Source: a virus
Virus record (IMG/VR): IMGVR_UViG_3300044695_006482
Span: 7,968-71,967 of that record
Length of the DNA stretch: 64,000 bases
Reading direction: 5' to 3' (one strand)
Shown: piece after piece, positions 27,391-64,000 of the stretch
Numbering within the stretch: the stretch's first letter is position 1
Layout: every line of letters begins with the position of its first letter
Translations under genes and position numbers: made by a program
Notes under the pieces: model-generated
The model's input: the letters and a program-made list of their open reading frames with translations, nothing else
Database searches by the model: none
What the model was told of the DNA's origin: nothing

Positions 27391-28872
27391 ATGACCTCCT
27401 CCCTCTCGCAGCTCCAGCGGCGCGCCGACCGCCTCCGCCTCGAGCTGGCCCGCCGCGCTGCCCGCGCCGCGAATTTCGACCCGGCCGTACCGCCAACCAA
27501 GCTCCCCGGCGTCGATGACTGGCCGTCGTTCGCACGACGCACCTGGATCCGCACGGCCGGCACGGTGGCCCCTTTCGACCCGTACCCCTACCAGGAGGCC
27601 CTGGTCCGCTCAATCAACGCCCACCCCAACACGATCATCAACAAGTCGCGCCAGATGGGCGCCTCAGAGACGGTCTGCTCCTACCTGCTGTGCCGTGCCC
27701 TCACCGAGCGCGGATTCGCCGCCGTGGTCTTCTCCAAGACGCAGCAGGACGCCTCCGAGCTCGGCCGCCGAGTGCGCGCCATGGCCAACAGCATCGAGGG
27801 CGAATCGATCCGCTACCTGACCGACAGCAACACGCAGATCGCCATCGAGGGGCGCGGCACGCTGTACTTCCTGCCGGCGTCGCCCCGCGCGGCCCGCGGC
27901 ATCCCCAGCTGCTCCGTCCTGTTCATGGACGAAGGCGCGTTCCTTGACGGCGCTGCCGAGATCTACCGAGGCGCCATGCCGACCCTGTCGATGGTGGGCG
28001 ACGCCGCCAAGGTGATCGTCACGTCAACCCCCGACACCGAGCTTGACTGGTTCGGCCAGCTGTGGCACCAGGGCACGCCGGTCGACTGGTACGACTACGT
28101 GCGCCGCCACGAGATTGCCGCGCTGAACACAGCCCTGGCCGAAGTCCAGGACTCCTGGAACCGGGTCGCGATCCACTACAGCCAGCATCCGATCTACGGC
28201 GCCGACCCGCAGTGGGCGCAGCGGACCCGCGAGTCCCGCCGCATGACCCAGGCCGCATGGGACAGCGAATACGAGCTGGCCTTCGGTGCGACCGACACCC
28301 AGATCTACCCAACAGACCTGATCCGCCGCGCCACCCGCGGCCACTGGCGCGAGTGCGGCTCGATCGGCCGCACCTACGTGATCGGCATCGACCCGAACGC
28401 CGGGGGCAACGACTACTTCACCGCTCTGGTGCTGGACATCACCGCCACTCCCTACGAAGTGGTGGCCATGTACCACGAGAACGGCAAGAGCACTGATTAC
28501 AGCTTGCGCCATGTGAAGTCACTCATTGAGGATTACCTACCCGAGCGGGTAATCGTGGAGAAGCAGGCGATGGGAGCTGTGATCGCAGAGGCGCTCGCCA
28601 ACATCCTGCCCAACTATGCTATCGAGACGTTCAGCACAAGCCGCCCCAGCAAGGTAGTAGCAACCGACCGCATCCTTTACTACCTCGAGCGTGACGAGCT
28701 GATCTTCCCGAATGGCGCCATCCCCAACGAACTCCGCGCCTTCCAGCAGAAGGAATCCGGGTCCCGCGAAGCAGCCTCAGGCGCGCATGACGATACTGTG
28801 ATGGCGTTGGCCTTCGCCTGCAGCGCCGTCCCCGAGACCCCGAATACTGCGGGGTTCTTCGCACATATTTAA
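27391..28872 (+). CDS. terL: Terminase large subunit
   Basis: PYPYQ, KSRQMGAS (Walker A), LFMDEGAF (Walker B), TSTP, IGIDP, HDDTVMALA nuclease motif. Confidence 0.93.
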   Translation: MTSSLSQLQRRADRLRLELARRAARAANFDPAVPPTKLPGVDDWPSFARRTWIRTAGTVAPFDPYPYQEALVRSINAHPNTIINKSRQMGASETVCSYLLCRALTERGFAAVVFSKTQQDASELGRRVRAMANSIEGESIRYLTDSNTQIAIEGRGTLYFLPASPRAARGIPSCSVLFMDEGAFLDGAAEIYRGAMPTLSMVGDAAKVIVTSTPDTELDWFGQLWHQGTPVDWYDYVRRHEIAALNTALAEVQDSWNRVAIHYSQHPIYGADPQWAQRTRESRRMTQAAWDSEYELAFGATDTQIYPTDLIRRATRGHWRECGSIGRTYVIGIDPNAGGNDYFTALVLDITATPYEVVAMYHENGKSTDYSLRHVKSLIEDYLPERVIVEKQAMGAVIAEALANILPNYAIETFSTSRPSKVVATDRILYYLERDELIFPNGAIPNELRAFQQKESGSREAASGAHDDTVMALAFACSAVPETPNTAGFFAHI

Positions 28873-28982: not shown

Positions 28983-29300
28983 CTACGCCGCTCGGGGAGA
29001 GTGGAGCCACAGCCAGATGTCCGCCTCCCGCTCCGGATCCCAGAACGCCTGAGCGCGAAACCAGCGAACCCAGTCGATCTCCGAGCCCTTGGCCCGGTTG
29101 CAATCCGCGCAGGCCGCGATCAGGTTCTGCGCGACCGTGTGCCCACCTTTGCACCGAGGGCGGACGTGATCGAGCGTGCCCGCCGGCCTACCGCAGTAGG
29201 CGCATAGGCACTTCCAGGAGTCGAGGATCCCCTGCCGGAACCGCAGCTTGGCGAGACGCTTCGAAAGGAGGACGGATCCATCGATGTGATGGTCCACCAT
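28983..29300 (-). CDS. HNH endonuclease
   Basis: CAYCG...TLDHVRPR.KGG....NL..AC..CN..KG. Confidence 0.9.
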   Translation of the reverse strand: MVDHHIDGSVLLSKRLAKLRFRQGILDSWKCLCAYCGRPAGTLDHVRPRCKGGHTVAQNLIAACADCNRAKGSEIDWVRWFRAQAFWDPEREADIWLWLHSPRAA

Positions 29301-29352
29301 GCGCCGAATGCCGCTTACCCAGCGTATGGACCCCCCGAGCACGCGTAGAACC

Positions 29353-29427
29353 GACTCTAAGTTTTTGTATGTAGAGGCTAAGTTCTTGCGCCCAGACTCT
29401 AAGTTTTTATGCCTTAAAGCTGAGTTT
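29353..29427. repeat. Four CTRAGTT motifs at an exact 21-bp period
   Basis: CTAAGTT at 29357, 29378 and 29399; CTGAGTT at 29420. Confidence 0.8.
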
Positions 29428-29513
29428 CTCTCGATTTTTCCCGACTTCTGCGACTGACAAGAATTCAGCCTCAACTCGTAGACTGTGCGTATTGCCCCCC
29501 GCCCACCCCTGCC

Positions 29514-31355
29514 GTGGAGCCGCTTGAGTCCGATAAATTCCGGAACGATATAAGTACTAACAGGAATGACGGCGCACTTGTCAACGTCCTCACCGGCATG
29601 GGTGTGAGTGGCAAAGACAAGACAACAGCAACCTCCGTCGGCTCCAGCTACCTCCTAACGCAAGGCGAACTCGAAGCCCTCTACAGCCACGGTGTCCCAC
29701 GTCGTTACGTCGACGCTATCGCCGATGAGATCCTTCGCCACCGAGCCACAATCACGATCGGCGGCGACGACCCCAACGCCCAGGACGTCATCACCGGCTT
29801 CGAGGAGTACCTGAAGGTCACGCAGTTCCACGCGTCCTTGTCTGAGGTGATCAAGCTGCAGCGCCTCTACGGTGGCGCCGGCCTCGTGCTGCTCATCGAC
29901 GACGGCCTCCCCGAGGACGAACCCGTCGATGCCACCCGCATCCGCTCGGTCCGCGGCTACGTCCCCCTGTCCCGCCACGAGCTGATCCCCGAGGACTTCA
30001 CGATCACCGACTGGTCCAAGCCCAGTCACTACCGGATCACAACAAGTCAGCGCATCACCCCGGAGCAGGACGGCCCATACGTCAACGTCCGCATCCACAG
30101 CTCACGCGTCGCCCGGTTCGACGGCCTGTACCTGCCCTGGCGTGTCCGAGCGCGGAACACCGGCTGGGGCCACAGCGTTCTGCAGCTGATCTGGGAGTCG
30201 TTCAAGCGCTACGAGTCGGCCATGTCGGGCCTGGAGTCGATGACCTCCGACGCCGACCTGTTCGTCCACAAGATCCCTGGCCTGTTCCAGCGGATCGCCT
30301 CCGGCAACGAGAGCGACCTGCGCAAGCGCCTGGAGGCCAACAACCTCAGCCGCTCGGTGTACGGCGGCATGGTGGTCGACGTCGAGGAGGACCTGCAGTT
30401 CCTCAATCGCGCCCTGGCCAACATCGCGACCGCAACCGATCCGTTCGTCAAGGATCTGCAGGCCGCCACCGGCTGGCCCGCCTCCATCCTGATGGGCGAC
30501 TCCCCCGGCGGACTCGGCAAGGAGGGTCGCTTCGAGGAGCGCGTCTGGGCCTCGCTGGTCGAGCAGTGGCAGGAGGTGTACTGCCGCACCCCGGTCACCG
30601 AGGTGTTCTCCTACATCCTCGCCGCCCGCGAGGGCCCGCTTCGCGGCAGGCCGCCGGCGTCCTGGGCGACCCACTTCCCCTCGGTGTTCACCCAAACCGA
30701 CGAGGAGAAAGCCGCCCTGCGCCTGCAAATGGCCCAGGTCGACGCCCAGTACGTGAACCTCGGCGTCCTCAACGCAATTGAAGTACGTGAATCCCGTTTT
30801 GCCGGAACGGAGTACAGCATCGAGACCACGCTGAACGAAGTCGTTTCGGAGCAGCTCGTCACGCAAGCCGACGCGTCGTTCCAGAGCCAGATGATGGGCT
30901 ACGAAGCGCAGGCCCAGGCGCTGCAGAACCCGCCGGCGCAGGAAGCGCCACCACCCGAGGCCGGAGCTCCCCCCGAGGCCGACCCGGCCGCGAAGCGTCG
31001 CGACGTCTTCGACAACTACGAGGCGCACGGCCTGCGGATCCGCGTCACGCACACGGCCGGTGAGATCCGCGCCGGCCACCTTGTTGGACCCGACGGTCAG
31101 CGCACCGACTCCAGCGCCAACGCACCGCTGATGGTCTTCGGCCCCAACCGCTCGCGCAGCTACAAGCTGTACCGCGCTCGGTTTGATGCGGCGGACGGCG
31201 CCCTGCTCGAGGGCCCCTATGTGACGGGCTTCGCCTCACTGCGCACAGCCAAGCAAGGCGTGGCCGCTCTATTCCCTCGGCAGAATGTGGCAGGGCTGTC
31301 CCCCGTCCCCGAGGGCGAACTTGAAGCCCTCCGCGCCGGATGGGAGGTGTACTGA
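29514..31355 (+). CDS. Portal protein (DUF1073 type) with C-terminal extension domain
   Basis: RLYGGA, IHSSRVARFDG, GWGHSVL, PASILMG.SPGGL; follows the terminase genes. Confidence 0.88.
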   Translation: MEPLESDKFRNDISTNRNDGALVNVLTGMGVSGKDKTTATSVGSSYLLTQGELEALYSHGVPRRYVDAIADEILRHRATITIGGDDPNAQDVITGFEEYLKVTQFHASLSEVIKLQRLYGGAGLVLLIDDGLPEDEPVDATRIRSVRGYVPLSRHELIPEDFTITDWSKPSHYRITTSQRITPEQDGPYVNVRIHSSRVARFDGLYLPWRVRARNTGWGHSVLQLIWESFKRYESAMSGLESMTSDADLFVHKIPGLFQRIASGNESDLRKRLEANNLSRSVYGGMVVDVEEDLQFLNRALANIATATDPFVKDLQAATGWPASILMGDSPGGLGKEGRFEERVWASLVEQWQEVYCRTPVTEVFSYILAAREGPLRGRPPASWATHFPSVFTQTDEEKAALRLQMAQVDAQYVNLGVLNAIEVRESRFAGTEYSIETTLNEVVSEQLVTQADASFQSQMMGYEAQAQALQNPPAQEAPPPEAGAPPEADPAAKRRDVFDNYEAHGLRIRVTHTAGEIRAGHLVGPDGQRTDSSANAPLMVFGPNRSRSYKLYRARFDAADGALLEGPYVTGFASLRTAKQGVAALFPRQNVAGLSPVPEGELEALRAGWEVY

Positions 31356-34183
31356 TGGACAACCAGCACCCCCTGACGCCCGAAGGCTTCCGCACCGCGG
31401 CGTACCTGGCCGCCCGAGAGCGGTTGGACGCACGCAAGACCACGCGCAACGTGCAGTGCAACCCACCCAACGTGCGCTGCGGCAATCGCTGCATTCCGCC
31501 GACGTGGGACTGCCGACTCAAAGGTCAAGGCGCTGATCCACATCTGCGTGCGGTCAAAACCGATCCGCTCGGTGGACTTGCCAACATCCAACGCGGCTTT
31601 GGTCGCATCAGCAAAGGCATTGTAAAAGGCAACTTCTCAGAAGTTGAAGGTGGTAAGCGCGCGATCATCCGAGGCTCGGTCAAGATCGCCCCAGGCAATA
31701 TCCAGCAGAAGAAAGAACTGCAGAAAAAACTGGAAGATCGCACGCGCGCAATCGGCATCGGCCTCGCCGTAGTAACTGGCGGCTTAGGCATCCACGCGTT
31801 GCTGATGAAGAGCGATACCTTTGGTTACCGCAATGGTGTCGGCGCCAACATCAACAATGCCACGCGGCTTGGTGTTAGCCGTGTACTGGACGCCATCCCA
31901 GGCATCGGCTCCAAGCGAGCGCGGGTACGCGCAGCTGTTTCGACTGGCGTTCAAGAGCAGCTCACCCGCCAGGCCAACCCCGCCTCAGCAGTTCTGACCG
32001 GCCAGCTTGCGCGGACTCAGGTCACCGGCGCTGATGCAGACGCCCGAACCAACCTCGTGCAGGCGCTGCAGACCGTCAACGGCAAGCATGGCGGCGCAAA
32101 CTCCGACTTCGACGCCTGGAACCGGGAACATCAGAGCGCCTTCTGGGGTGTGACGCGTGTCGAGAACGGTGTAGGGCTTACTGGTGACAAACGTGCAAGC
32201 GTCTTTGCTCGCCCTGCTACTGATGAGTTCCTGGCGCGGCAGTTCGGCCTCCAGGGGGACGATGTACTCACAAGTGGTGCGATTAAAGACGCAGTAGAGC
32301 GCCGCCTCGGTGAGTACAAGTCCGATCTCCTCGATCTAGCGCAACAGCAGGGCTACCGAGTGACGAGTGTACGAGGTGGTGCTCGCACGCTTGCCCCCGC
32401 TGATCAACGTACCTTCATCCAGGGAGTAGTACGAGGCACACTGCCTACAGGTCAGAGCAATAATCGTGTGCGCACACAGCTCACACAAAGCCTAGAAGAG
32501 ATACTAACAAATAGCCCCAAGACCCGAGCCAGAGCTGTCTACAACGAAACATTTGGTACTTTCAATGATTTCTACACGTCAAGAGCATCCGCTATCGAGA
32601 ATGCCTCTTCCTCCTCATTTTTCTCGCGTGAAATGCGGCGCGCGGGGGTGGAACAGACAGTGATCGACGGGCGTCAGGCGCGCGCGCAGTATGTCCTCGG
32701 GCTGGTGCGCCCCGGCAGCCAGGTCCAGGGCCCATCTCACGCCGAACTCGCGTTGCGCGAGTACCACGCTCGTGAAGTGGCGCGCACGCCCCGCAGCATG
32801 TACACCATCAGTGATCGCCTGGCGATCTCCGCCGCCTCCGAGATCGAGGGGCGCACTGTCGGCCGAAGCGAGGCATTTCAGATCCTGGAGCGTGAGGGCT
32901 TCACCGGCGCGGTCCCCCGCACCCAGCCGGCGCGCCAGCGCCAACGCCCCTCCACCGAGGGCGAGGCCGCCTACCAACTGATGCGACAGAACCCCGGCAT
33001 GACGTTGGAGGCAGCCAGGCGCGAAGTGAAGCGCAACCGCGGTGATGCCGAGCTCGTCCGCACGGCCACGTACCTGGCCGCCCGCGCCGATTTCAAGGAG
33101 AACCCCCGCCTGGGAAAGCCTTGCGGCGCCTCGCACATCCCGAAGGCGCATGAGTGCCGGAAAGGCGAAGGCGCTGATGCCCCCTCGCCTGCAACTCAGG
33201 CTACGGATCGCCGGAAAAAGGCTGCGGTCATTGCCGCGGTAGCCGGCGGTGCACTGGCCATAGCCGTCGCGGGCAGTGTCGCCTACAACCTCAAGAACAT
33301 CAGCGACCCGACCAAAGCCCCCTTAGCAGCCAGCCCGTCCATCAAAGATCTGACTCGTCAAATGAAGAAGGAGTCGGGGTTCAAATCCACAAGTGAGGCC
33401 ATGGGGTATTATTATACTCAAAAGTCTGGTCTCAAGCCCGGAGACGTTGTCTACTTCAGGCATGAAAAAGACCCAGCCGCCCACTTTGGAATCTACCTAG
33501 GCGAAGGCAAAGACGGCGTAGTTCGCGCCGTAATTGCCAACACCAAAGAGTCTCGCTTCAGCTGGACAGACATTGCCGAGATCGGCACGACGAAACCCGG
33601 TGTCAAGACATCTCAGGCCGCGATGACGCCCCTGCAGAAGGCCCCGAAGCCCGGCTTCGCCGACACACGCGGCGTGTCTTTCACAAACGAAGAAGTTGTT
33701 AAGCGTGCCATCCGTATTGCGGGAACCGACTACAAGTTCACTCTGACTAAGGACAACTGCGAAGCTCTGGCAAACGGTATTGCTTACGGCGTCCCTGAAT
33801 CCGAGCAGCTACAGCGGTTTCGCCGTGCCACCCGCGCCGTTGTCGACATCGCAGTGACGCGCGACCAACGGCGTGAAGCTCGTGAAGCCATCTACAGAGG
33901 TAAGGCCCAAGGCCGGAGCTACAGCGCAGCCCAGTTCGTCACCTTCTTGGAGGGCAAGCGTGAGTTCAGCTCCCCCATCGGGCGTGATCTGTCTGCGCAG
34001 TATGCCCAGTACTTCGAGCGAAGCCGCACCGATGCCGAGGACGCACCCACCCTCGGCCTAATCCCGGTCTCCGAATTATGGAGTCGCATCGAGTCCTACG
34101 GCCCCGTCATCCGCGCCCAAGCTATGGGCGACTACCTGTTCCTTCAGCGCACCCTGGTTGAAATCAATCGTGGAACTCCTTGA
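31355..34183 (+). CDS. Large modular head-associated protein: two RxD/CGx3Ix5C/TM modules and an LRAT-like domain
   Basis: TGATG-coupled to portal; Cys motifs at 31478 and 33122; PGDVVYF..HFGIYLG...NCE. Confidence 0.8.
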   Translation: MDNQHPLTPEGFRTAAYLAARERLDARKTTRNVQCNPPNVRCGNRCIPPTWDCRLKGQGADPHLRAVKTDPLGGLANIQRGFGRISKGIVKGNFSEVEGGKRAIIRGSVKIAPGNIQQKKELQKKLEDRTRAIGIGLAVVTGGLGIHALLMKSDTFGYRNGVGANINNATRLGVSRVLDAIPGIGSKRARVRAAVSTGVQEQLTRQANPASAVLTGQLARTQVTGADADARTNLVQALQTVNGKHGGANSDFDAWNREHQSAFWGVTRVENGVGLTGDKRASVFARPATDEFLARQFGLQGDDVLTSGAIKDAVERRLGEYKSDLLDLAQQQGYRVTSVRGGARTLAPADQRTFIQGVVRGTLPTGQSNNRVRTQLTQSLEEILTNSPKTRARAVYNETFGTFNDFYTSRASAIENASSSSFFSREMRRAGVEQTVIDGRQARAQYVLGLVRPGSQVQGPSHAELALREYHAREVARTPRSMYTISDRLAISAASEIEGRTVGRSEAFQILEREGFTGAVPRTQPARQRQRPSTEGEAAYQLMRQNPGMTLEAARREVKRNRGDAELVRTATYLAARADFKENPRLGKPCGASHIPKAHECRKGEGADAPSPATQATDRRKKAAVIAAVAGGALAIAVAGSVAYNLKNISDPTKAPLAASPSIKDLTRQMKKESGFKSTSEAMGYYYTQKSGLKPGDVVYFRHEKDPAAHFGIYLGEGKDGVVRAVIANTKESRFSWTDIAEIGTTKPGVKTSQAAMTPLQKAPKPGFADTRGVSFTNEEVVKRAIRIAGTDYKFTLTKDNCEALANGIAYGVPESEQLQRFRRATRAVVDIAVTRDQRREAREAIYRGKAQGRSYSAAQFVTFLEGKREFSSPIGRDLSAQYAQYFERSRTDAEDAPTLGLIPVSELWSRIESYGPVIRAQAMGDYLFLQRTLVEINRGTP

Positions 34184-35042
34184 GCGCTACAACCGCCTCC
34201 TCCACACCTCCGAGAGCGGCACCATCACCATGCTCAACCGCGTCCTCGACGCGAGTTTCAACCGCCTGGTCCGCCGCGCTCGGGTGCACATGCAGGCGGG
34301 CTACAACGACCCCGCCCAACGCAACCTGGCCCTGTTGCAGGAGTTCCGGATGCTGGTGCCGTCGTTCAACCCCAACGCCGTGGACGGCTACGACCGCATC
34401 CTGCGCAACCTCGTGGGCACCGCCGGGCGCTTCGGTATCACCGTCGCCGATGAGCTCACCGGTCAGGTGAAGACCGGCCCGCGGGTCGACGTCTCCATTC
34501 CGCTGGAAGCGACGATCGCCGCCGCCGGCCAGGCCAAGGGCTACCTGCGCCGCCACGGCGAGAAGTTCGCCGAGACCGCGGCCGAGACCGTCGCCCAAGG
34601 CATCGCCGAAGGCCGCCCCACCGACGCCATGGTGCAGGACATGCGCTCTCGGCTCGGTGTGGTGAAGTCCCGCGCTGAAGCGATTGTCCGCACCGAGTCA
34701 CTGCGCGCCTACAACGACGCCTCGAACACGTACTACGCCGCGCAGGGCATCGAGCTGGTGATGTACTACGCCACTGCTGACGACAGGCTTTGCCCGTTCT
34801 GCGCCCCGAGAGCGGCCCAGATCTACCGCCGCGCCGAGATCAAGGTGCCGCTGCACCCGCGTTGCCGGTGCTACCTCGCCCCGTGGGACGCCGACGTGGC
34901 CTCGATGGACCCGGACTACGCAGCTATGCGGAAAACGCATAAGTCCGACGTCGCCAAAGCATTCGCCAGCGCCGGCACCGAGCCTGTTTCTCTCAACAAG
35001 GCCGCGGTGTTCGAGCAACTCGCCCCAACGCCGCTGTCCTAG
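34170..35042 (+). CDS. MuF / SPP1 gp7-like head morphogenesis protein
   Basis: RAEAIVRTE..RAYN, DDRLCPFC, PLHPRCRC. Confidence 0.9.
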   Translation: MELLERYNRLLHTSESGTITMLNRVLDASFNRLVRRARVHMQAGYNDPAQRNLALLQEFRMLVPSFNPNAVDGYDRILRNLVGTAGRFGITVADELTGQVKTGPRVDVSIPLEATIAAAGQAKGYLRRHGEKFAETAAETVAQGIAEGRPTDAMVQDMRSRLGVVKSRAEAIVRTESLRAYNDASNTYYAAQGIELVMYYATADDRLCPFCAPRAAQIYRRAEIKVPLHPRCRCYLAPWDADVASMDPDYAAMRKTHKSDVAKAFASAGTEPVSLNKAAVFEQLAPTPLS

Positions 35043-35099
35043 GCCGGAACTGGTTCTTACACTGGCCTATCACATCCTGGGCGGCGTCGCCCTACTGCT

Positions 35100-36158
35100 A
35101 TGCCCGCCGCCACCAAGAAGCGCCCACCGATGGAGATGGAGCCCGGCGAGGGCAAAGCCCACGAGAGCGCCGAATCCGCTGCTGAAGAGACCCGCGAAGG
35201 CGCCGAGCCCGACGACGCCCCGAAGGCCAAGACCAACCGCAAGCGCAGCGCGAAGAATGCCAAGGCCACCAAGGCTCCGATGGACAGCGACTGCAGCTGT
35301 GGTGCGGCGAAAGGCAAAAAGTGCTCCTGCGACGGCGGATGCGGTAGCGGCTACGCCAAGAAGATGGACCGCAACGACGCCCTGACCCCTCAGGAGTACC
35401 TCGCCGCCTGCGACCTCGGCATCCAAGGCCGCAGCCGTGCCTACATCCGTTCCCGCCTCGACACCGCCATGAATCTCACTCCTTCCACCGTCCGCAACGA
35501 TCTCAAGTGCGGCAATGGTTCCATCTCCGAGGGCGAAAAGTGCACAAAGGGAGCCGCTCAGAAGGTCGATCCGAAAGCAGAAGCAAAGAAGGAGTTCAGA
35601 AATTTGATGAACAATCCTACTGCAGCTTTTGAATTCAGCAGAGCCCGAGGTTCTACCAAAGGAGTTGGTAACAAGATCAAGGTCGCCGGTGAACTCGCCG
35701 CCCGTGTCGGCGGCGGGTTCGCCCTCGGTGCCGGCTTGGTGCAGATTTCTGAAGGCGCTATGCGTGGCAACCTCGGGGAAGTCAGTCGCGGCTACCGCAA
35801 CATGCAGCTCGGCGCCGCCGCGACTCATGTGGCAGCTGCGAGTAAGGCCGGTCGTATGGGCAAAAAAGAACTCTCGAAGGAGTTCCTGAAGAGTGCGGGC
35901 CGTCAGGCAGCCATCGGCGTAGGCCAGGAAGCTGCCATTGGCGCATACGCCGGCTTCAAGCGCGCCGGGGGAGCAGCGGGTATTGGCCGCAACGCACGCC
36001 GTGCCTACCAGGGCACACGCATGCGCACCTCCGGCATGGGCTCCACCCCACGCGGCACGGGCTGGGCCTCGAGCGCCTACGACCGTCCACTGCCTGGGCG
36101 CCGCGACTCCGTCTACGCCAACGGCTTCTCCCCCGAGCTCGACCAACTCGCGATCTGA
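35100..36158 (+). CDS. Modular head-associated protein (RxD/CGx3Ix5C family)
   Basis: LTPSTVRNDLKCGNGSISEGEKC; C-terminal RRDSVYANGF. Confidence 0.8.
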   Translation: MPAATKKRPPMEMEPGEGKAHESAESAAEETREGAEPDDAPKAKTNRKRSAKNAKATKAPMDSDCSCGAAKGKKCSCDGGCGSGYAKKMDRNDALTPQEYLAACDLGIQGRSRAYIRSRLDTAMNLTPSTVRNDLKCGNGSISEGEKCTKGAAQKVDPKAEAKKEFRNLMNNPTAAFEFSRARGSTKGVGNKIKVAGELAARVGGGFALGAGLVQISEGAMRGNLGEVSRGYRNMQLGAAATHVAAASKAGRMGKKELSKEFLKSAGRQAAIGVGQEAAIGAYAGFKRAGGAAGIGRNARRAYQGTRMRTSGMGSTPRGTGWASSAYDRPLPGRRDSVYANGFSPELDQLAI

Positions 36159-36161
36159 GCC

Positions 36162-36656
36162 GTGGTACTTACTCCGACTTTAGTACGCAGCGATGTTTTC
36201 ATTGGCAACAAAAAGCTGAACTGCGGTCCTGGCTCCAAGCCCTGTGGCAACGCCTGTATCCCCAAAGACCACAAGTGCAGGGCTTCGTGGAACAAGCCAG
36301 TCAAGCTGGCCGCCGGCGCAGCGGCTCTTACCGGGGCCGCAATCGTCGGCACTGCGTTTCTCCACCCGAGAGCGAACATGCGCAGCGCCGCTCGTTCTGT
36401 GATCGACCCGACCCTGCAGACCGGCTTCGGCATAGGCAATGTGGCCCGTGGCAACTGGGCCGGTGCTGCGAAGAACGCCGCCAACGTGGCAGCTACAGGC
36501 CAGGATCTCGGTAAGAACCTAGGCACCCTCGCTAAGGGCTACGGCACCGACATCAAAGGGGCAGTCAACCGAGGGCGTAACGCTGCGTTCAAGTGGCGCA
36601 ATCACCGCCCCGCAAAGCGTCGCGACTCCGTCTGGGCCGAGGGCTTCGCACCATGA
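36162..36656 (+). CDS. Modular head-associated protein (RxD/CGx3Ix5C family)
   Basis: LTPTLVRSD...CGNACIPKDHKC, TM helix, C-terminal RRDSVWAEGF. Confidence 0.8.
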   Translation: MVLTPTLVRSDVFIGNKKLNCGPGSKPCGNACIPKDHKCRASWNKPVKLAAGAAALTGAAIVGTAFLHPRANMRSAARSVIDPTLQTGFGIGNVARGNWAGAAKNAANVAATGQDLGKNLGTLAKGYGTDIKGAVNRGRNAAFKWRNHRPAKRRDSVWAEGFAP

Positions 36657-37597
36657 CGCTCACCCCTGCCTCGCTCCGCCTCGACGCCCCCGGCCGCGCC
36701 TGCGGCCAGGGCTTCATCTCCGCTGGCAAGACCTGCCGGCAAAAAGGCGCCTTCCCGACGGGCAAGGCCATCGCCGCGGGTCTAGGTGTGGCCGCCCTCG
36801 GTGTCGGGGCTTATGCGTTGTCCCGGCGTGGCAAGGGCGCCGCAACCTCCAGCAGCGGTGGCAGTTCCCCCTCCGGCCCTCCGCGCCTTCCGGGTCTGAC
36901 ACCTCGCGGTCTCCTCGCCGCCGCACCCCCGCGCAAGTCCAAGACCCAGCGCATGCGCGAGAACACCGCCGCCGCGGTGCGCAACGCCGAGGGTGCCATC
37001 GCTCAAACCGCCCGCGAAGAAGTCCGCCGCGTCGGCCAGATCGGCAACACCATGGCCACCGCCGGTGAAGCTGCGGGCATGGCCACCAAGACCACCCTGC
37101 GCGAACTCCGCCTGCGCACCGAGGCCGCCCGTCGTCGCTTTGAGCCTGGTTATCGCGCTCCGGACCAGCGCCGACTGCCCGGTGGGATCCAAGCCCAACT
37201 CCCCCAGAGCAACCAGCAGCCGGAGACCATCCCCTTCGACCCCCGCACTGGCCAGCCACGCCGGCGCAAACCCCGAGGCTTCGGTCGCACCGACAACTTC
37301 ATCCAGCACTACGCCCCAGTCCTGCTGCAGCCGCCGACACGCCGCGACGCTGAGGACGGCAAGAAGTACGCCAAGACCGTCACCAACCCCGAGACCGGAC
37401 GCAAGAACACCGTCCGCTATGGCGCCAAGGGCTACAAGATCGCCCCCGGCACGGACAAAGGCGACCGCTACTGCGCCCGCAGCTTTGGCGACATGAAATC
37501 CGAGGGCTACGACTGCTCCGGCGCTGAGCGCAACACGCCGCTGTGCCTCTCACGGGCGAAGTGGAAGTGCTCGGGCAAAGCCAGTCGCCGCTCCTGA
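36653..37597 (+). CDS. Modular head-associated protein (RxD/CGx3Ix5C family) with basic C-terminal domain
   Basis: LTPASLRLD...CGQGFISAGKTC, TM helix; C-terminal KKY...VRYGAKG...YCARS...W.C. Confidence 0.8.
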   Translation: MTLTPASLRLDAPGRACGQGFISAGKTCRQKGAFPTGKAIAAGLGVAALGVGAYALSRRGKGAATSSSGGSSPSGPPRLPGLTPRGLLAAAPPRKSKTQRMRENTAAAVRNAEGAIAQTAREEVRRVGQIGNTMATAGEAAGMATKTTLRELRLRTEAARRRFEPGYRAPDQRRLPGGIQAQLPQSNQQPETIPFDPRTGQPRRRKPRGFGRTDNFIQHYAPVLLQPPTRRDAEDGKKYAKTVTNPETGRKNTVRYGAKGYKIAPGTDKGDRYCARSFGDMKSEGYDCSGAERNTPLCLSRAKWKCSGKASRRS

Positions 37598-37607
37598 GCA
37601 GACTGAG

Positions 37608-37772
37608 GTGAAACCCGCCCATCCCCCCGAGCACGCCTTCACCCGCCTGTGGTTCTGGAACAGCGCCGGCGCTCAGACTCTGCTGTGCCCAGTGCACGAA
37701 GCTGCAGACATCAAGCGCCGCCTAATTGCCGAAGGTGCCGTTGTCTGGCACACAGAAGTGTATAACGCCTAG
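37608..37772 (+). CDS. Hypothetical protein (54 aa)
   Basis: GTG start; MKPAHPPEHAFTRLWFW... Confidence 0.5.
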   Translation: MKPAHPPEHAFTRLWFWNSAGAQTLLCPVHEAADIKRRLIAEGAVVWHTEVYNA

Positions 37773-37984
37773 ATCCCTACAATCAACTGCTCCAAAGTAA
37801 TCCTGTACAACTCAGCCAAAGCAAACAGCTTACTAATCGATACCTCAATCTCACCATGTTCCAACCTGCTGTAAGCAGCTTGGCTGACTCCTAGCACCTC
37901 TGCAACTTGCATTTGTGTCAGTCCAGCAGTAATACGCAGCATACGAATTCTGCGACATAGCTCCAGCTGCCTGTGAATGGCCAC
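37769..37984 (-). CDS. XRE-family HTH regulator
   Basis: IRMLR..AGLTQMQVAEVLGVSQAAYSRLEHG. Confidence 0.85.
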   Translation of the reverse strand: MAIHRQLELCRRIRMLRITAGLTQMQVAEVLGVSQAAYSRLEHGEIEVSISKLFALAELYRITLEQLIVGI

Positions 37985-38045: not shown

Positions 38046-39338
38046 ATGGAAACGTCTGTTTCTCGTTACGACTTCGCGCCCATCACGGGAAGCGAAACCA
38101 CCGAGGAGGGTTACCTCCGCGTCTGGTGTCGTGCGGCGCGCACGGGGACCCAGCTCTACCGACGTGCAGACGGCTCTCAAGTTCGGGAATACCGCCCGCC
38201 GGAGGAGGTCAGCAACCCTGACTCCCTCACGACGTTCGGCATGAAACCCGCGACCTGGGGCCACCCCCCGGTCCTGCTCGATTCGGCGAACACCAAGCAG
38301 TTCCAGATCGGCTACTCCGGTAGCCAGGTCCGGTACAACGACGGTTTCGTCGAAGTCGCCCTGGTTGTCACCGACCAAGACGCCATCGAGAAGATCAAGC
38401 GCAAGGACGCCACCGAGGTGTCCGCCGGCTACAAAGTCGACTTCGACCCCACCCCCGGTCTTACCCCCGAGGGCGAGGAGTACGCCGGCGTCCAGCGCAA
38501 CATCCGGGTCAACCACATCGCCATCGTTCCCCGCGGCCGGGCTGGCCCGGAGGTTCGACTCCTAATGGATCGCATGGATGCGGCCGACGCCGTCTCCTTC
38601 GATCCCGAGTGGATCCGCGACAGCGGATCGGCGCTCCAGCCCTGTCAACCTGCATCTCCCGTTATGGCCACCGTCAAACTCGACGGCCTGGAGATCGATC
38701 TGCCCGCAGAAGCAGCCACCGCGGTCCAGTCCTTCGCACGGGACATGGGGCGCCAACTCAAAGCTGTGACTGACGAGCGCGACGAGCTTTCTTCCAAGCT
38801 CGACGCCCTCCAAGCAGATCTCGACTCCCTCTCCTTCGAGAAAGAAACCGCTGAAGGCCGCGCCGACGCCCTCGAAGAGCGCCTGGCCGAAGTCGACGCC
38901 GGCGCAAGTCGCATCGACACCGCCGAGCTCGACCAACTCGTCGCCGCCCGCCTCGCCACCCTGCAGAAGCTGGCTCCCGCATTCGCCGAAGACTTCCACT
39001 TCGACGGCATCGACGACGCCGCTCTGTACACCCAAGCCTTCGAGAACCTCACCGGCTCCGCCCCCCGCGAAGACGCTGAGCCCGCCTACATCCAGGGCGT
39101 CGTGGAGGGCATCCTTGCCGCTCGCGCCGACTCCGAGGACGGCGACGAAGAGGAAGGCGATGACACCGAGGACGCCGGCGACGGCGAAGCCAAGGAAGAC
39201 TCTGCCGACCGCGCCGACAGCACCGCCAACCTGCGCGATGCCCTCAAGGGCGCCGGCCGCAGTCCCGCTTCCCCGGTGGACACCTACCGCGCGAAGCAGG
39301 CGGATGCCTGGAAGCGTCCCCTCACTGCCACCAAGTAA
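38046..39338 (+). CDS. Prohead protease/scaffold (DUF2213 type)
   Basis: TEEGYL...ARTG.Q.Y, YRPPEEV, T.GHP, EVSAGY, QRNI.VNHIAIV.RGRAG; acidic coiled-coil C-terminus. Confidence 0.88.
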   Translation: METSVSRYDFAPITGSETTEEGYLRVWCRAARTGTQLYRRADGSQVREYRPPEEVSNPDSLTTFGMKPATWGHPPVLLDSANTKQFQIGYSGSQVRYNDGFVEVALVVTDQDAIEKIKRKDATEVSAGYKVDFDPTPGLTPEGEEYAGVQRNIRVNHIAIVPRGRAGPEVRLLMDRMDAADAVSFDPEWIRDSGSALQPCQPASPVMATVKLDGLEIDLPAEAATAVQSFARDMGRQLKAVTDERDELSSKLDALQADLDSLSFEKETAEGRADALEERLAEVDAGASRIDTAELDQLVAARLATLQKLAPAFAEDFHFDGIDDAALYTQAFENLTGSAPREDAEPAYIQGVVEGILAARADSEDGDEEEGDDTEDAGDGEAKEDSADRADSTANLRDALKGAGRSPASPVDTYRAKQADAWKRPLTATK

Positions 39339-39350
39339 GGAGCTCCTGCC

Positions 39351-39959
39351 ATGCCCGTTACGTTCACCCCCACCACCGTCACCAACCCCTCCGGCGCTCA
39401 GGGCAGCTACCCGCTGCGCGAGGCCGTAGGCCACGAGGGCGGCATTGCTGATCTGCAGGCTTATGTCTGCCGCAGCTACCGCAACCAGTCCGGCGCCGCG
39501 ATCCCGTTCGGGAGCCTGGTGATGACGGACAACGCCCCCACCACCAACGATCCGTACGCCGTTGAGCTGGCGACCGGCATCACCCTGATTCAGGGCATCG
39601 CTGTCCACTCCCTGGTCACTGAGGGCACCACCCTCGGTGCTGCTTACACCCCGATCCCGACTCCTTACTTCTCCGACGGCCGCATCGGCTATCCGGACAA
39701 GGAGACCGTCAACGTCGTCTCGAAAGGCGTTGTCTGGGTGTTCTCCGTCGATGCAATTGCACTCGGCGACGCGGTCCGCTTCTACAAAGCCGACCACTCC
39801 GGCACAACTGCTGGCGCCTTCCATGGCCGCTTCGGCAAAACCGCCGTGGCGACGAAGACTGTTGCAGTCGCAGGCGCACGCTGGCTGTCGGAAACCACTG
39901 CCGCAGGTCTGGTTCTCCTCGAGCTGGACATCCCCGGTCAGACCTACACCGCCGACTGA
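39351..39959 (+). CDS. Capsid decoration/cement protein
   Basis: Between scaffold and capsid; IPFG..V, V.V..KG.VWV motifs. Confidence 0.75.
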   Translation: MPVTFTPTTVTNPSGAQGSYPLREAVGHEGGIADLQAYVCRSYRNQSGAAIPFGSLVMTDNAPTTNDPYAVELATGITLIQGIAVHSLVTEGTTLGAAYTPIPTPYFSDGRIGYPDKETVNVVSKGVVWVFSVDAIALGDAVRFYKADHSGTTAGAFHGRFGKTAVATKTVAVAGARWLSETTAAGLVLLELDIPGQTYTAD

Positions 39960-39974
39960 CGGAGACCCTCCCCC

Positions 39975-40892
39975 ATGACCACCGAAATCCGCAACGACGA
40001 GGTCGGCGTCTTTCTCGCCCGTGAGCTTGAGACCATTCTCAGCCGCACGTTCGAGGTCGAGTACGCCGACATCAAGTACAGCCAGCTGATCCCGATCTCC
40101 ACCGAGGTCGGTCCTGGCGCTGACTCCTTCACTTATCGCGTCTTCGACAAGCAAGGCTCGATGAAGGTGATCAGCGACAAGGCCCAAGACCTGCCCCGCG
40201 CTGACGTGCTCCGCAAGGAAGTCACCCTGCCGGTTCGCAGCATTGGTGGCTCCTTCGCCTACACCATCCAGGAAACCCGTGCCGCCGCCATGGTGCCCGG
40301 CATGAACCTGGAGCAGCGCCGCGCCAACGCTGTGCGCCGGGCCTACGAGGAGAAGATGCAGGAGATCGCCTACTTCGGCGACGCTGCCTCGGGCATGAAG
40401 GGCTTCTTCAACAACGACCAAGTCGACAAGCTTGTCCCTGACAAGTGGTTCGATGGTGGCAGCACCACCACCGACGAGATGCTGTCGTTGCTGAACGAGG
40501 TGCCCACCCGCCTCGTGCAGAACTCCAACATGAAGGAGATGCCCAACACGATGCTGGTGCCCTACAACGTGTACCGCATCATCTCCACCACCCCGAGGTC
40601 GACCACCTCGGACACCACCGTGATGGAGTTCTACCTGCGCACCAACCCGATGATCACGGCGATCGAGCCCATCAACGAGCTCGAAGCCTCCAAGTCGGGT
40701 GGCGCCCTGTCCAAGGACCGCATCCTGGTGTACGACCGCAGCCCGGACAAGCTGCAGCTGCACGTCCCGCAGCCGCTGGAGTTCCTGCCTCCTCTGCGTC
40801 AGGCCCTCGAGTTCACGGTGGCCGCCCACGCCCGCGTTGGTGGTCTCTCGCTCTACTACCCCAAGAGCGCGATGGTGCTGGAAAAGGCTTGA
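39975..40892 (+). CDS. Major capsid protein (DUF2184 type)
   Basis: FLARELE.I, G.F.YTIQE.RAA, AYFGD....GFFN; strong codon bias; position in head module. Confidence 0.9.
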   Translation: MTTEIRNDEVGVFLARELETILSRTFEVEYADIKYSQLIPISTEVGPGADSFTYRVFDKQGSMKVISDKAQDLPRADVLRKEVTLPVRSIGGSFAYTIQETRAAAMVPGMNLEQRRANAVRRAYEEKMQEIAYFGDAASGMKGFFNNDQVDKLVPDKWFDGGSTTTDEMLSLLNEVPTRLVQNSNMKEMPNTMLVPYNVYRIISTTPRSTTSDTTVMEFYLRTNPMITAIEPINELEASKSGGALSKDRILVYDRSPDKLQLHVPQPLEFLPPLRQALEFTVAAHARVGGLSLYYPKSAMVLEKA

Positions 40893-61166: not shown

Positions 61167-64000
61167 ATGGCGCTACAGCACATCCTCAAGAACTCCGCTG
61201 TCAGCGGCAAAGAACCAACTGCGTCGCAGCTAGCTAATGGCGAGATCGCCCTTAACTACCACGTTGACGGTCCATTCCTCACTTGTAAAGACACCAGCGG
61301 TGCGATAAGACGCATCACCGGTGTCTGGATCAGCGCCACATCCCCGAGCACACCTACACCCGGTGAATTCTGGCTCGACCTTTCAGTAACGCCAGCGCAG
61401 CTCAAGATCTACAAAGACACCACAGATACCTGGATTCAAACCTACACAGTTGCCATCGCATCAACCACAGTCTCCGGCATTGTCGAGCTCGCGACCGATG
61501 CTGAGACCATCACCGGTGCGGACGCACTTCGAGCTGTAACGCCAGCCTCGCTCCAGGCCAAGCTCAGCGATTCGACCGGCCTGGCCAACAGCGCGCGCAT
61601 CGCCAGCAGTACAGCCGTCAAAAGCGCGTATGACTTAGCTGACGCAGCACTACCACGTACCGGTGGGACGATCACTGGAGCTGTTCAGTTCGCTCTCGGT
61701 GCTGCTGCTACACCCAGTATCACCTTCACCGGCGATACAAACACGGGGCTCTTCTCCCCGAGCGCGGACCAGCTGTCGGTCACGACGGGCGGTACTGAGC
61801 GGCTGCGCATTGACGCTGCTGGCCAGATTGAGGCTGTCAGCCTCGGCACTGCTGCGGCACCGGCGTGGAGCTTCGTAAGCGACCCCAACACCGGCCTCTA
61901 CAGCCCCGGCGCCGACCTACTGGCTCTGAGCACCGCTGGTGCCGAACGCCTCCGCATCGACAGCTCCGGCCGGCTCTTAGTTGGCACGTCTACGACTCGT
62001 AGTGTTGGTTCCGTTACGCCCGCATTTCAGGTAGAGGGGACCAGTTTCAATACTGCGTCTATGCATTTAGCTATCAACGCAAATGATACTCAGCCTTCTT
62101 ATTTAACATTTGCTAAAACCCGAGGAACAGCTCTTGGGCAAAATACTATTGTTCAATCCGGTGACAATCTCGGAATTATAAGGTTTTACGGAGCAGATGG
62201 TACAACTTTAGTTCATGGTGCATCTATTGTCGCCCTAGTAGACGGCACCCCCGGCGTTAACGACATGCCGGGCCGCCTGGTCTTCTCCACCACCGCCGAT
62301 GGCGCGAGCACCCCGACGGAGAGGCTACGCATCGACAGCGCCGGCCGCGTGGGAATTGGGACGACTAGTCCTGCCACGCAGCTACATGTTTTGGGTACGG
62401 GCACACAAACATTTCGTATTTCAAATACATCCCTTGGTTCAAATGCGTCCCCAGAACTGACCCAAATTGTTTTTACCGGTTTTAATGACACAGTAAAAGC
62501 AAGCGTAGAAGCAGAAGATAAATCTCTTAATTTTACTGGTGGTTGGCTAAATCTAAAAACAACAGACAGCAGCGGGGTTCTTCAAACTGCATTGCATATT
62601 GATCGCGAACAGCGAGTCGGTATTGGGACGAGTAGTCCTGCGGCACGGCTCCACGTGTTTGGTGGTGCAGAAGGACTACGCGTAGAGACATCAGCCTCTA
62701 GCGAGGGTTACATTCGTTTTGTGAACACAAGCGGCTCAATGTCAATCGGCATGAGCGGATCAGTTGGAAACAACTTATTGATTTATGATCGAACTAACAA
62801 TCAAGCTGTATATGCATACGCTGGAGGCGCTAGTGGCTATCATGGCTGGTCCACAAACAACATTGAACGCCTCCGCATCGACAGCGCTGGCCGCGTGGGG
62901 ATTGGGACGAGTAGCCCTAGCCTTGGATTGCTGGAAGTATCAAGTACTAATGGCGTTACGCTAGCAATTAAAAATACATCAGGAACTGCAGTAGGCAATG
63001 AGTTTTGCCAGCTTACGTTTAACAACACAAGCAATAGTGCTACAAATTTTGAATCAGCAAAAATTAAAGCTATCTCCACAAACGGTGGATCTAACCTTGC
63101 TCATCTAACCTTTGAAAATAGCGGCACCGAGCGCCTCCGCATCGACAGCTCCGGCAACGTGGGGATTGGGACGACTACTGCTGGAGCTAGGCTGCAAGTT
63201 AATGCACCTACAACATCAAGGGTATATACATCCAGTGTTTTGGATTTTTCAAACATACATTTAGAAGGCATTACTGCAAGTACTACAACATCAGCATTAA
63301 CGTTTAGTTCTGGTAATGGGGGTGGAGCTGCTGTAGCATTTAGCCGAGACAATGCTTTTGGGACATTTATTGGATTTTGGACCAATTCAGCCGCTAGCGC
63401 CAACGCTGCCACCGAACGCCTTCGCATCGACAACTCCGGCCGCGTAGGGATTGGGACGAGTAGTCCTGGCTACAAGCTTGAAGTATTTGGCACATCAAAC
63501 GCAAACGAAATTCGCTCCAGCGATGGAACTACTATTGGCCAGTGGTATCAAGACAGTGGTGGAATTTCCATTTTTGGTACTGTTAGTAATCACCCGCTTG
63601 CGTTTAGAACCAACTCAAGCGAGCGAATGCGGATTGACAGCTCCGGCCGGCTGCTGGTGGGGACGAGTACTAGCATCAACAACTTGCTAGATGCAGCAGT
63701 TCAGATTGCTGGAACGAGCACCGACTCGTATTTGTCAGTTACGCGTTTTAGCTCTGTTGCAGGAGACCCTGCGGGTATTATTCTTGGACGATCCAAGTCT
63801 GCTACTAAAGGGGTTAATACCGCTGTTAGCAATGGGGATTATTTAGGCGCCATTAGCTTTTCTGGAGCAAATGGAACGTCATACACCCAGGCTGCATCTA
63901 TTGGTGCAGAAGTTGACGGTGCTGTAACCGGTGGAGGCGCAGGCGACATGCCAGGTCGCCTGGTCTTCTCCACCACCGCCGACGGAGCGAGCAGTCCGAC
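61167..64000 (+). CDS. Long tail fibre protein, truncated by the window end
   Basis: GGAGGT SD; MALQHILKNS...LANGEIALNY; repeated ERLRIDSSGRVGIGT units; same frame at 63960. Missing from the ORF track, consistent with no stop in the window. Confidence 0.88.
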   Translation, partial: MALQHILKNSAVSGKEPTASQLANGEIALNYHVDGPFLTCKDTSGAIRRITGVWISATSPSTPTPGEFWLDLSVTPAQLKIYKDTTDTWIQTYTVAIASTTVSGIVELATDAETITGADALRAVTPASLQAKLSDSTGLANSARIASSTAVKSAYDLADAALPRTGGTITGAVQFALGAAATPSITFTGDTNTGLFSPSADQLSVTTGGTERLRIDAAGQIEAVSLGTAAAPAWSFVSDPNTGLYSPGADLLALSTAGAERLRIDSSGRLLVGTSTTRSVGSVTPAFQVEGTSFNTASMHLAINANDTQPSYLTFAKTRGTALGQNTIVQSGDNLGIIRFYGADGTTLVHGASIVALVDGTPGVNDMPGRLVFSTTADGASTPTERLRIDSAGRVGIGTTSPATQLHVLGTGTQTFRISNTSLGSNASPELTQIVFTGFNDTVKASVEAEDKSLNFTGGWLNLKTTDSSGVLQTALHIDREQRVGIGTSSPAARLHVFGGAEGLRVETSASSEGYIRFVNTSGSMSIGMSGSVGNNLLIYDRTNNQAVYAYAGGASGYHGWSTNNIERLRIDSAGRVGIGTSSPSLGLLEVSSTNGVTLAIKNTSGTAVGNEFCQLTFNNTSNSATNFESAKIKAISTNGGSNLAHLTFENSGTERLRIDSSGNVGIGTTTAGARLQVNAPTTSRVYTSSVLDFSNIHLEGITASTTTSALTFSSGNGGGAAVAFSRDNAFGTFIGFWTNSAASANAATERLRIDNSGRVGIGTSSPGYKLEVFGTSNANEIRSSDGTTIGQWYQDSGGISIFGTVSNHPLAFRTNSSERMRIDSSGRLLVGTSTSINNLLDAAVQIAGTSTDSYLSVTRFSSVAGDPAGIILGRSKSATKGVNTAVSNGDYLGAISFSGANGTSYTQAASIGAEVDGAVTGGGAGDMPGRLVFSTTADGASSP

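Follow-up and report, generated by a model that had tools for sequence, protein, structure and literature searches.

A cysteine-bounded header unit repeated before variable cargo among the head genes of a cyanophage-like virus

The head genes of a 71,967-bp cyanophage-like virus (IMG/VR record IMGVR_UViG_3300044695_006482) were analysed in a stretch of 64,000 nucleotides (nt), bases 7968-71967 of that contig, which is called the window here and to whose numbering all coordinates refer unless marked as genome. Between the genes for the portal and the head maturation protease, the window carries four open reading frames (ORFs), named A, C, D and E, grouped around a MuF-type minor head gene, and from portal to E neighbouring genes adjoin directly or share a few bases (Table 1). 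An earlier note on this DNA had described in these four ORFs five copies of an exactly spaced motif, CG-x3-I-x5-C, and had read them as a targeting tag that loads membrane-active effectors into the head. With the regular expression CG...I.....C, the motif, which we call the header, gave exactly five matches in the six-frame translation, in the window and in the whole genome alike, at the positions and with the peptides of that note; the expectation by chance, from 200 shuffled genomes, is a mean of 0.33 matches. All five headers lie on the plus strand and in frame, two in ORF A and one each in C, D and E, and they have only the spaced residues in common.

Table 1 Features of the head region and breakpoints between the window and its close relatives.
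Feature	Position	Strand	Remarks
Large terminase	27391-28872	+	
Portal protein	29514-31355	+	PF06381, Pfam 1.7e-50
ORF A	31355-34183	+	942 residues; two-module polyprotein; start overlaps portal stop
ORF A leader	31355-31429		with LTP and RLD
Header 1 (ORF A)	31478-31513	+	four invariant Cys
ORF A helix 1	31751-31807		
ORF A cargo 1	to about 33037		conserved
ORF A linker sites	33038-33046; 33083-33091		RGD; RAD
Header 2 (ORF A)	33122-33157	+	
Break past header 2	33184		27 nt past header; homology again from 34171, at the MuF start
ORF A helix 2	33224-33280		
ORF A cargo 2	about 33431-33793		LRAT/NlpC-P60-like, PF04970
ORF A RTD	34025-34033		
MuF-type minor head protein	34158-35042	+	PF04233 4.8e-12, phrog_115 2.9e-23
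ORF C	35100-36158	+	352 residues
ORF C R-x-D sites	35370-35378; 35454-35462; 35493-35501		
ORF C leader	35469-35501		MNLTPSTVRND
Header 3 (ORF C)	35508-35543	+	
Break past header 3	35551 / 35565		8 / 22 nt past header; homology again from 36099, first base of the C-tail RRD
ORF C cargo 3	35566-36098		variable
ORF C C-terminal RRD	36099-36107		then tail SVYANGFSPELDQLAI
ORF D	36162-36656	+	164 residues
ORF D leader	36162-36194		
Header 4 (ORF D)	36243-36278	+	extra Cys 7 residues upstream
ORF D helix	36306-36362		Gly/Ala-rich; helical body behind
ORF D RRD	36618-36626		then tail SVWAEGFAP
ORF E	36653-37597	+	314 residues from ATG overlapping D stop
ORF E leader	36653-36685		
Header 5 (ORF E)	36701-36736	+	
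ORF E helix	36767-36823		
Break past header 5	36783		47 nt past header; homology again from 37292, at the RTD site of E
ORF E variable middle	36784-37291		
ORF E sites	37286-37294; 37340-37348		RTD; RRD; conserved C-terminal part behind
HTH_3 regulator, small	37769-37984	-	PF01381 2.8e-14; between cargo array and protease
Head maturation protease (DUF2213) and scaffold-like part	38046-39338	+	PF09979 1.2e-41, phrog_530 5.7e-84
Cement protein	39351-39959	+	
Major capsid protein	39975-40892	+	PF09950 1.6e-55

Each header follows an R-x-D at a distance of 2 to 16 residues, in the form LTP-x3-R-x-D at units 3-5 and with RTA-x-YLAAR at units 1 and 2, as had been noted. The 11-residue leader M-x-LTP-x3-R-x-D forms the N-terminus of D and E and is internal in C. 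Behind units 1, 2, 4 and 5 lies a hydrophobic Gly/Ala-rich stretch (best 19-residue Kyte-Doolittle mean 1.75-2.21), and behind unit 3 this stretch is weak (1.24), so that the transmembrane-like helix claimed for all five units holds for four. The claim that one cargo is LRAT-like was borne out: cargo 2 of ORF A matches the LRAT profile PF04970 with an E-value of 1.2e-8 and 35.7 bits, above the curated cut-off of 24.3, which places it in the LRAT/NlpC-P60 family. In its translation, the His of 'AAHFGIY' and the Cys of 'DNCEAL' are presumably the catalytic residues of the LRAT/NlpC-P60 type. The N-terminal 123 residues of ORF C (35100-35468) are of a different kind, with acidic and basic low-complexity sequence, a Cys-rich stretch C-S-C-G...C-S-C-D-G-G-C-G, two further R-x-D and a second LTP; this part is 36-97% identical in relatives and has no family match.

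An AlphaFold2 model of ORF D, the most conserved of the unit proteins, was built from 12 sequences and has a low mean confidence (predicted local distance difference test, pLDDT, 61.6). The leader (residues 1-14) and the tail (150-164) have a pLDDT below 50 and are predicted to be disordered, four short strands over residues 11-34 form two hairpins across the Cys region (pLDDT 51-65), and a helix at 45-67 is followed by a helical body. The model is weakly indicative of accessible cut sites and a small hairpin, with which it is compatible. It had no match in BFVD at E<=1e-3, no solved structure was matched with a meaningful E-value by profiles of ORF A, the unit or the protease, and nothing was found in a protein atlas search.

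Using ORF D, we retrieved 26 related viral contigs, for which homologue counts are counts of related sequences and not of independent events. The gene order in all 26, as far as the contigs reach, is portal, A, MuF, C, variable extra unit genes, D, E, more unit genes, HTH, protease, cement and capsid, with up to 8 in-frame units per locus (in L011, L016 and L018) and up to 3 units in the ORF A homologues. The typical unit gene starts with M-x-LTP-x-T-h-R-x-D-L-K-CG-K/N-G-S/A-I-S-x-G-E-K-C-T-K-G, and R-R-D-S-V/I-Y/W-A-x-G-F plus 0-10 residues forms the end of 58 of the 122 unit-bearing ORFs. In L015 and L011, the tail of one module is fused in frame to the leader of the next, and split and fused forms thus appear to be interchangeable. 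A wider scan with ORF A gave 308 encoding stretches, and 53 loci were kept for synteny. The portal gene is immediately upstream of the array in 44/44 testable loci and MuF immediately downstream of the ORF A homologue in 37/38. The motif is linked to head modules elsewhere, the lack of which would have refuted the reading of the earlier note. In public sources the unit proteins are annotated as hypothetical or under automated misnomers. Megablast and tblastn searches of 50,697 phage records gave no match to the region, to ORF A or to ORF D, and a scan of 185,579 prokaryote genomes found only three short contigs of metagenome-assembled genomes, hence no link to a host or prophage.

The cargo behind the headers is diverse. 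The 139 cargo pieces of 27 loci fell into 23 sequence families, 5 of them in the window and 18 absent from it; the body of D is present in 25 of the 27 loci, the E type in 18, cargo 1 of A in 14 and the LRAT type in 13. In a Pfam scan of 42 non-redundant unit proteins, protein-kinase-like domains (RIO1/ABC1/APH/Kdo) were found in 7 (5 above a cut-off), LRAT in 5 (4 above cut-off), a J-domain in 4, ADPrib_exo_Tox and DUF5872 in one each, and no family in 24. With kinase-like, J-domain and ADP-ribosyltransferase domains in the relatives, the description of the cargo as membrane-active effectors fits only part of it. A 15-nt tandem repeat in about ten copies, with units such as GGCGCCGGCTACAGA, lies in a cargo gene of one relative (L011 7177-7395).

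We compared the window with L002 and L005, whose DNA is 93-98% identical elsewhere, and found that homology breaks off just past headers 2, 3 and 5 and resumes at a gene start or an R-x-D site (Table 1). The header is thus the fixed 5' border of exchangeable cassettes, and the idea of a shared unit before exchangeable cargo, which varies between close relatives, is upheld. Of the three tests that the earlier note had named as able to refute its reading, two, on head linkage and on cargo variation, were run, and both left it standing. The exchange that the earlier note had read from a low guanine-plus-cytosine (GC) content of the first cargo is not borne out: the difference is modest, since the GC content of 31514-33034 (and of the stretch named in the note, 31520-32620) is 60.7%, equal to the genome mean of 61.4% and lower only than that of tags and head genes (66-72%; 66-69% for those that flank it), and cargo 1 is kept at 97-98% in L002 and L005, that is, it was not exchanged among close relatives. 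Such breakpoints, 8-47 nt past the headers between near-identical phages, together with a gene number that differs among loci, might mean that the unit serves chiefly as a junction for recombination at the DNA level, by which cassettes are shuffled, and has no function as a peptide. This is highly improbable in view of the paralogous tags inside one genome, which share only 66-87% of their DNA and differ by 86 synonymous compared with 49 non-synonymous codons over 243 codons, an excess which argues that the header peptide is under selection; in addition, the five copies of the window are alike only in the spaced residues, and the motif is kept across phage lineages of differing base composition. 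The same identities and codon differences led us to reject recent gene conversion between tags.

The head module is of the T1 type, with a DUF2213 protein (protease, residues 1-172; scaffold-like part, residues 173-430), a PF09950 capsid protein and a homologous capsid cut site; T1-like coliphages have the same protease and capsid families. Among named phages, Synechococcus phage S-CBS4 has the most similar capsid protein (54.6% identity), and gp31-gp36 of the T1-like coliphage TLS (PMC11447400) follow the same order of portal, MuF-type protein, DUF2213 protease-scaffold, decoration/cement protein and PF09950 capsid protein. The N-terminus of the mature TLS capsid protein has been sequenced by Edman degradation (PMC11447400), and we found that the peptide begins at residue 28 of the deposited gp36, right behind K-N-D. 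This K-N-D aligns with the I-R-N-D of the window capsid protein, which starts with M-T-T-E-I-R-N-D (R-N-D at 39990-39998), and with F-R-M-D at the same place in S-CBS4; a K/R-x-D site before the capsid N-arm is shared by TLS and the window. The TLS scaffold part is rich in K-x-D, with at least 8 K-x-D-[AGS] sites, and that of the window contains six R-x-D-[AST] sites versus 0.66 expected, a number reached in 0 of 5000 shuffles. Most of these scaffold sites are at matching positions across 10 distinct related sequences, even amid divergent surroundings.

The same code surrounds the headers. An R-x-D was found within 20 residues upstream of 82 of 90 distinct units, compared with 230 of 1800 control windows, and the spacing from its Asp to the header is discrete (2, 5, 9-10 or 16 residues). 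In 80 ORF A homologues, which are related and non-independent, R-x-D is depleted inside cargo 1 (92 versus 192 expected) and averages 2.0 per 45 residues in the linker before unit 2. We propose with fair confidence that the head protease, which is of the T1 type (DUF2213), cuts at R/K-x-D, and the scaffold enrichment and the TLS capsid alignment make this a better account of the R-x-D than its earlier assignment to the tag. The header-adjacent sites may be cut by the same code, of which the TLS capsid protein is the single anchor. Leu or Phe stands behind the header-adjacent R-x-D in 42 of 77 distinct cases. Bacterial N-end-rule adaptors recognise N-terminal residues such as these, and cutting before them would expose a destabilising N-terminus, which could set the lifetime of an injected protein. 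For TLS gp36 (L032 15087-16061), the start of the Edman peptide implies the removal of 27 residues, and the text of PMC11447400 surmises 45. R-I-D sequences in the last ORF of the window (61167-64000) were rejected as cut sites, as they belong to a tail-fibre repeat.

The Gly/Ala-rich helices, found behind four of the five units of the window and behind 49 of 87 distinct units in the relatives, presumably resemble signal-anchor-release (SAR) segments, and the NlpC/P60-LRAT domain, lying behind a helix of this sort, has the look of a wall enzyme tethered to the membrane. On these grounds the unit proteins could be membrane proteins made late, with a function inside the producing cell and no place in the virion, the header and helix being a membrane-targeting or topology device and the nearby R-x-D incidental. 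They might then serve in remodelling the envelope, in controlling lysis, in superinfection exclusion or as an aid to assembly. We consider this unlikely, because the array has a constant place between portal and protease, to which it is translationally coupled, R-x-D clusters at the borders of modules and is depleted inside cargo 1, and the cargo of relatives is directed to the cytoplasm (kinase-like, J-domain, ADP-ribosyltransferase). The header occurs, moreover, in polyvalent proteins without a hydrophobic helix and, elsewhere, fused to a head protease, and the genome has a standard endolysin. The latter is a probable endolysin with Glucosaminidase and Peptidase_M15 domains (genome 6326-7471, minus strand, outside the window; L043), and with this protein in the genome the LRAT cargo was rejected as a lysis enzyme. 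Nor does the LRAT domain have the identity of a SAR endolysin, being the tail of a 942-residue head-module polyprotein and missing from the ORF A homologue of many relatives (the LRAT-type cargo family is present in 13 of the 27 loci).

Cargo 1 of A and the D and E types, the most widely kept families, have hydrophobic helices and no enzyme domain, and a wall- or lipid-acting enzyme in the same polyprotein suits an envelope-crossing device. All unit proteins might then be structural ejection (pilot) proteins, like T7 gp14-16 or P22 gp7/16/20, which form a conduit for the DNA through the host envelope, with the header as an assembly or threading element. As an account of the whole set this seems improbable to us: the siphoviruses TLS and S-CBS4, with the same head type, infect without any of these proteins, some of the 18 cargo families absent from the window are enzymes with cytoplasmic targets, and cargo swaps between phages that are otherwise nearly identical would be unusual for a fitted machine. 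In regard to the core modules, it overlaps the explanation that we prefer and set out below.

A profile survey of the motif, as the earlier note had proposed, was made with a 44-position profile from 47 units against 1.84 billion representatives. It gave 677 protein clusters at E<=1e-3 and 182 at E<=1e-10; the regular expression is present in 147 of the 150 best matches, most of them ORF A-like, and three of these 150, P0002, P0027 (insect chitin-binding repeats) and P0056 (junk repeat), were discarded as false. Some matches are classic polyvalent proteins with the header at domain borders, such as P0050 with 6 header copies and the domains InPase, ART-PolyVal, PolyA_pol and HD, P0076 with 5 copies and LPD1, InPase, NUDIX and two ART types, and P0077 with ART-PolyVal; P0050 and P0076 are proteins with 4-7 Pfam domains, and the distant carriers also include an ATLF-type metallopeptidase domain. 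In the polyvalent proteins the header has the consensus h-x-N-[SAG]-(0-5 small residues)-Q/K-P-CG-D/E-S-F/H/W-I-x4-T-C-H/R-V-G, and no hydrophobic helix lies behind it. On two more viral contigs, a kinase-like protein and a NUDIX/DarB-like polyvalent protein bear the header. Among 562 distinct unit strings, Ile-6 is conserved in 98% and position 7 is Pro or Ser in 89%; Cys or His is present at positions 5 and 10 in 131, where a four-ligand metal site is therefore possible, and 206 have only the two Cys. No model in Pfam, NCBIfam or PHROGs covers the unit, and no description of the header was found in the literature on capsid targeting, ejection proteins, DUF2213 and packaged effectors, which agrees with the view of the earlier note that the tag was undescribed.

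P0029 and P0050 are encoded on one 105-kilobase viral contig with a Mu-like head block, in the order four-unit protein, protein with one unit ahead of a Mu-type head protease domain (PF10123), scaffold, capsid protein, Mu gp36-like protein and six-unit polyvalent protein. On this contig all 11 units are preceded within 12 residues by a hydrophobic-x-Asn motif, and hydrophobic-x-N-[GSA] is enriched in two proteins of its head region (7 versus 0.83 and 6 versus 0.77 expected). With R-x-D in the T1-like and hydrophobic-x-Asn in the Mu-like context, the header stands just behind the recurrent motif of the lineage in two unrelated head types, and this recurrent motif is probably protease-related. 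It is conceivable, though less likely than not, that the Cys hairpin and its cleavable leader are a portable address label across unrelated head types (T1-like, Mu-like), whose carriers would be loaded into the procapsid, cut by the phage's own protease and injected. The cut code beside the header would then co-vary with the protease, R-x-D with DUF2213 and hydrophobic-x-Asn with the Mu type, in the two lineages examined. The head-region proteins of the Mu-like contig (L028 7438-11286) also contain N-x-G-T/N-S-E-G-x3-G/S-W-x-T-R-R three times, each right behind hydrophobic-x-Asn.

Several phage proteins are known to be carried in the head and injected, among them the T4 internal proteins and Alt, P1 Dar and the N4 polymerase, and to our knowledge T4 and its giant relatives are the only phages for which the way in which diverse cargo is addressed to the capsid is understood. 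The prohead protease of giant phages is T4-like, with an A/S/G-x-E code, and we know of no common header in their inner-body proteins. In the giant phages SPN3US and phiKZ, the loading of inner-body and ejection proteins depends on propeptides, and many head-internal proteins are cut by the prohead protease and ejected (PMC10052503, PMC5694885). In T4, the capsid-targeting sequence (CTS) of IPI-III and Alt is described as a leader of about 10 residues with a head-protease site at its end, which is cleaved off once the protein has been loaded; the ADP-ribosyltransferase Alt loses residues at both termini, and in T4-related phages the internal protein genes vary and keep CTS-like leaders (PMC9026906). 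The T4 protease is gp21 with an L/I-x-E code, whereas the window has DUF2213 with R/K-x-D and leaders that end in Asp; the two show no sequence likeness, and no Cys hairpin follows the cut in the T4 leaders as described there. Unlike the T4 internal proteins, the window modules are also fused as polyproteins. The window system would work like the T4 CTS and is not a member of it.

The nearest likeness is to the polyvalent proteins and portal- or MuF-linked effectors of Iyer, Burroughs, Anand, de Souza and Aravind 2017 (PMC5512222). As far as that account goes, the two have a common repertoire (ADP-ribosyltransferase, kinase, NlpC/P60, NUDIX, InPase), genes beside virion head genes and a cassette-like variation, and the header is found inside proteins with Pfam families of that paper (ART-PolyVal, InPase, LPD1). 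Both the neighbourhood of head genes and conflict-domain cargo are present in our material, the latter with LRAT here, kinase-like, DnaJ and ADPrib_exo_Tox domains in relatives and ART-PolyVal, InPase and NUDIX in distant carriers. Unlike the polyvalent proteins, the modules of the window are for the most part distributed over small genes of their own: C, D and E consist of a single module each, and only ORF A combines two, of which one contains a known enzyme domain. For processing, zincin-like metallopeptidases are proposed there (PMC5512222). The words 'cysteine', 'linker', 'transmembrane' and 'Zn-ribbon' are absent from its main text, which does not describe the header; its supplements could hold an alignment. 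Temperate phages encode MuF polymorphic toxins (Jamet et al. 2017, PMC5576092), which likewise have cargo linked to the MuF head gene and variable toxic or enzymatic C-terminal parts. In contrast to the fusions described there, the MuF of the window stands alone without a fused toxin (294 residues, PF04233 at residues 143-240), 0 of 253 unit proteins have MuF similarity, and there is no evident immunity gene.

Considering this evidence together, we think it rather probable that the four genes around MuF are a split, polyvalent-type capsid cargo system with a T1-type R-x-D code, in which an undescribed Cys-hairpin header marks cassette exchange. A module would consist of a short disordered leader ending in R-x-D, cut by the DUF2213 head protease, the 12-residue Cys-bounded hairpin header, often a Gly/Ala-rich helix, which could be soluble in the capsid and later inserted in a membrane, and a variable cargo; many modules would have a second site, RRD, with the conserved tail S-V-Y/W-A-x-G-F at their end. 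The unit proteins would enter the procapsid along with portal, MuF and protease-scaffold, the protease would remove leaders and tails and split ORF A into its modules, and the processed products would exit with the DNA at infection. We infer packaging, cleavage at the module sites, ejection and the role of the header from sequence. For the core modules (cargo 1 of A, D and E) a role in ejection or at the membrane is likely, and the swappable modules probably supply enzymes directed at the host (LRAT/NlpC-P60 in the window; ADP-ribosyltransferase, J-domain and kinase-like in relatives). The targeting-tag interpretation of the earlier note is, overall, partly supported.

A number of observations weigh against this explanation. 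None of the four cargo parts other than cargo 2 has a family match in Pfam, NCBIfam or PHROGs, so that only one of the five has a recognisable domain, and the helix is of limited presence in the relatives, whose homologues are, as said, not independent. The residue behind the header-adjacent R-x-D is often Leu, Val or Phe, whereas the scaffold and TLS sites have Ala, Ser or Thr, and not every R-x-D need therefore be cut. S-CBS4 and TLS, close relatives by head module, have no header (0 six-frame matches in TLS), which makes the units dispensable for head assembly. None of the cultured phages in the 50,697-record collection matches ORF A or D, and two cultured phages have homologous cargo domains but no header. 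None of 253 unit proteins is a fusion with this lineage's portal, MuF, protease or capsid protein.

If the label reading is true, the set of injected effectors of uncultured phages could be read straight from sequence. If the header or leader is a loading signal, it would give a rule for listing the effectors of abundant aquatic phages (kinases, ADP-ribosyltransferases, J-domain proteins, wall/lipid enzymes) and a handle for packaging foreign proteins in phage heads; if not, the region would still be a clear case of a split polyvalent system. What is gained for experiment is a recognisable header, present in hundreds of clusters and in two or more head types that are unrelated, a cut code that can be traced to an experimentally sequenced site, and natural swaps just past the header.

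The portal protein of the window has a conserved C-terminal add-on domain of about 118 residues (to 31352), which follows a variable Pro/Glu-rich linker and is preceded by K-R-R-D at 30996-31004; of 47 distinct portal sequences aligned, the 22 listed all have [RK]-x-D before this domain. In the S-CBS4 portal, an unrelated C-terminal domain lies behind R-G-D at the matching place. By its sequence the domain looks like a portal-fused cargo without the Cys header. The HTH_3 gene is at the same place in every related locus reaching that far, and an annotated repressor is there in S-CBS4. An HNH endonuclease gene (28983-29474) lies between terminase and portal. Further from the head genes, the window has a weak integrase-like match below the Pfam cut-off (235-1290), an AbrB-like regulator (2003-2437), ThyX (11864-12841) and a full sigma-70 factor (13190-14059), and the tail-fibre-like ORF at 61167-64000, which runs past the window end, contains seven copies of the repeat T-E-R-L-R-I-D-S-S-G-R-V-G-I-G-T.

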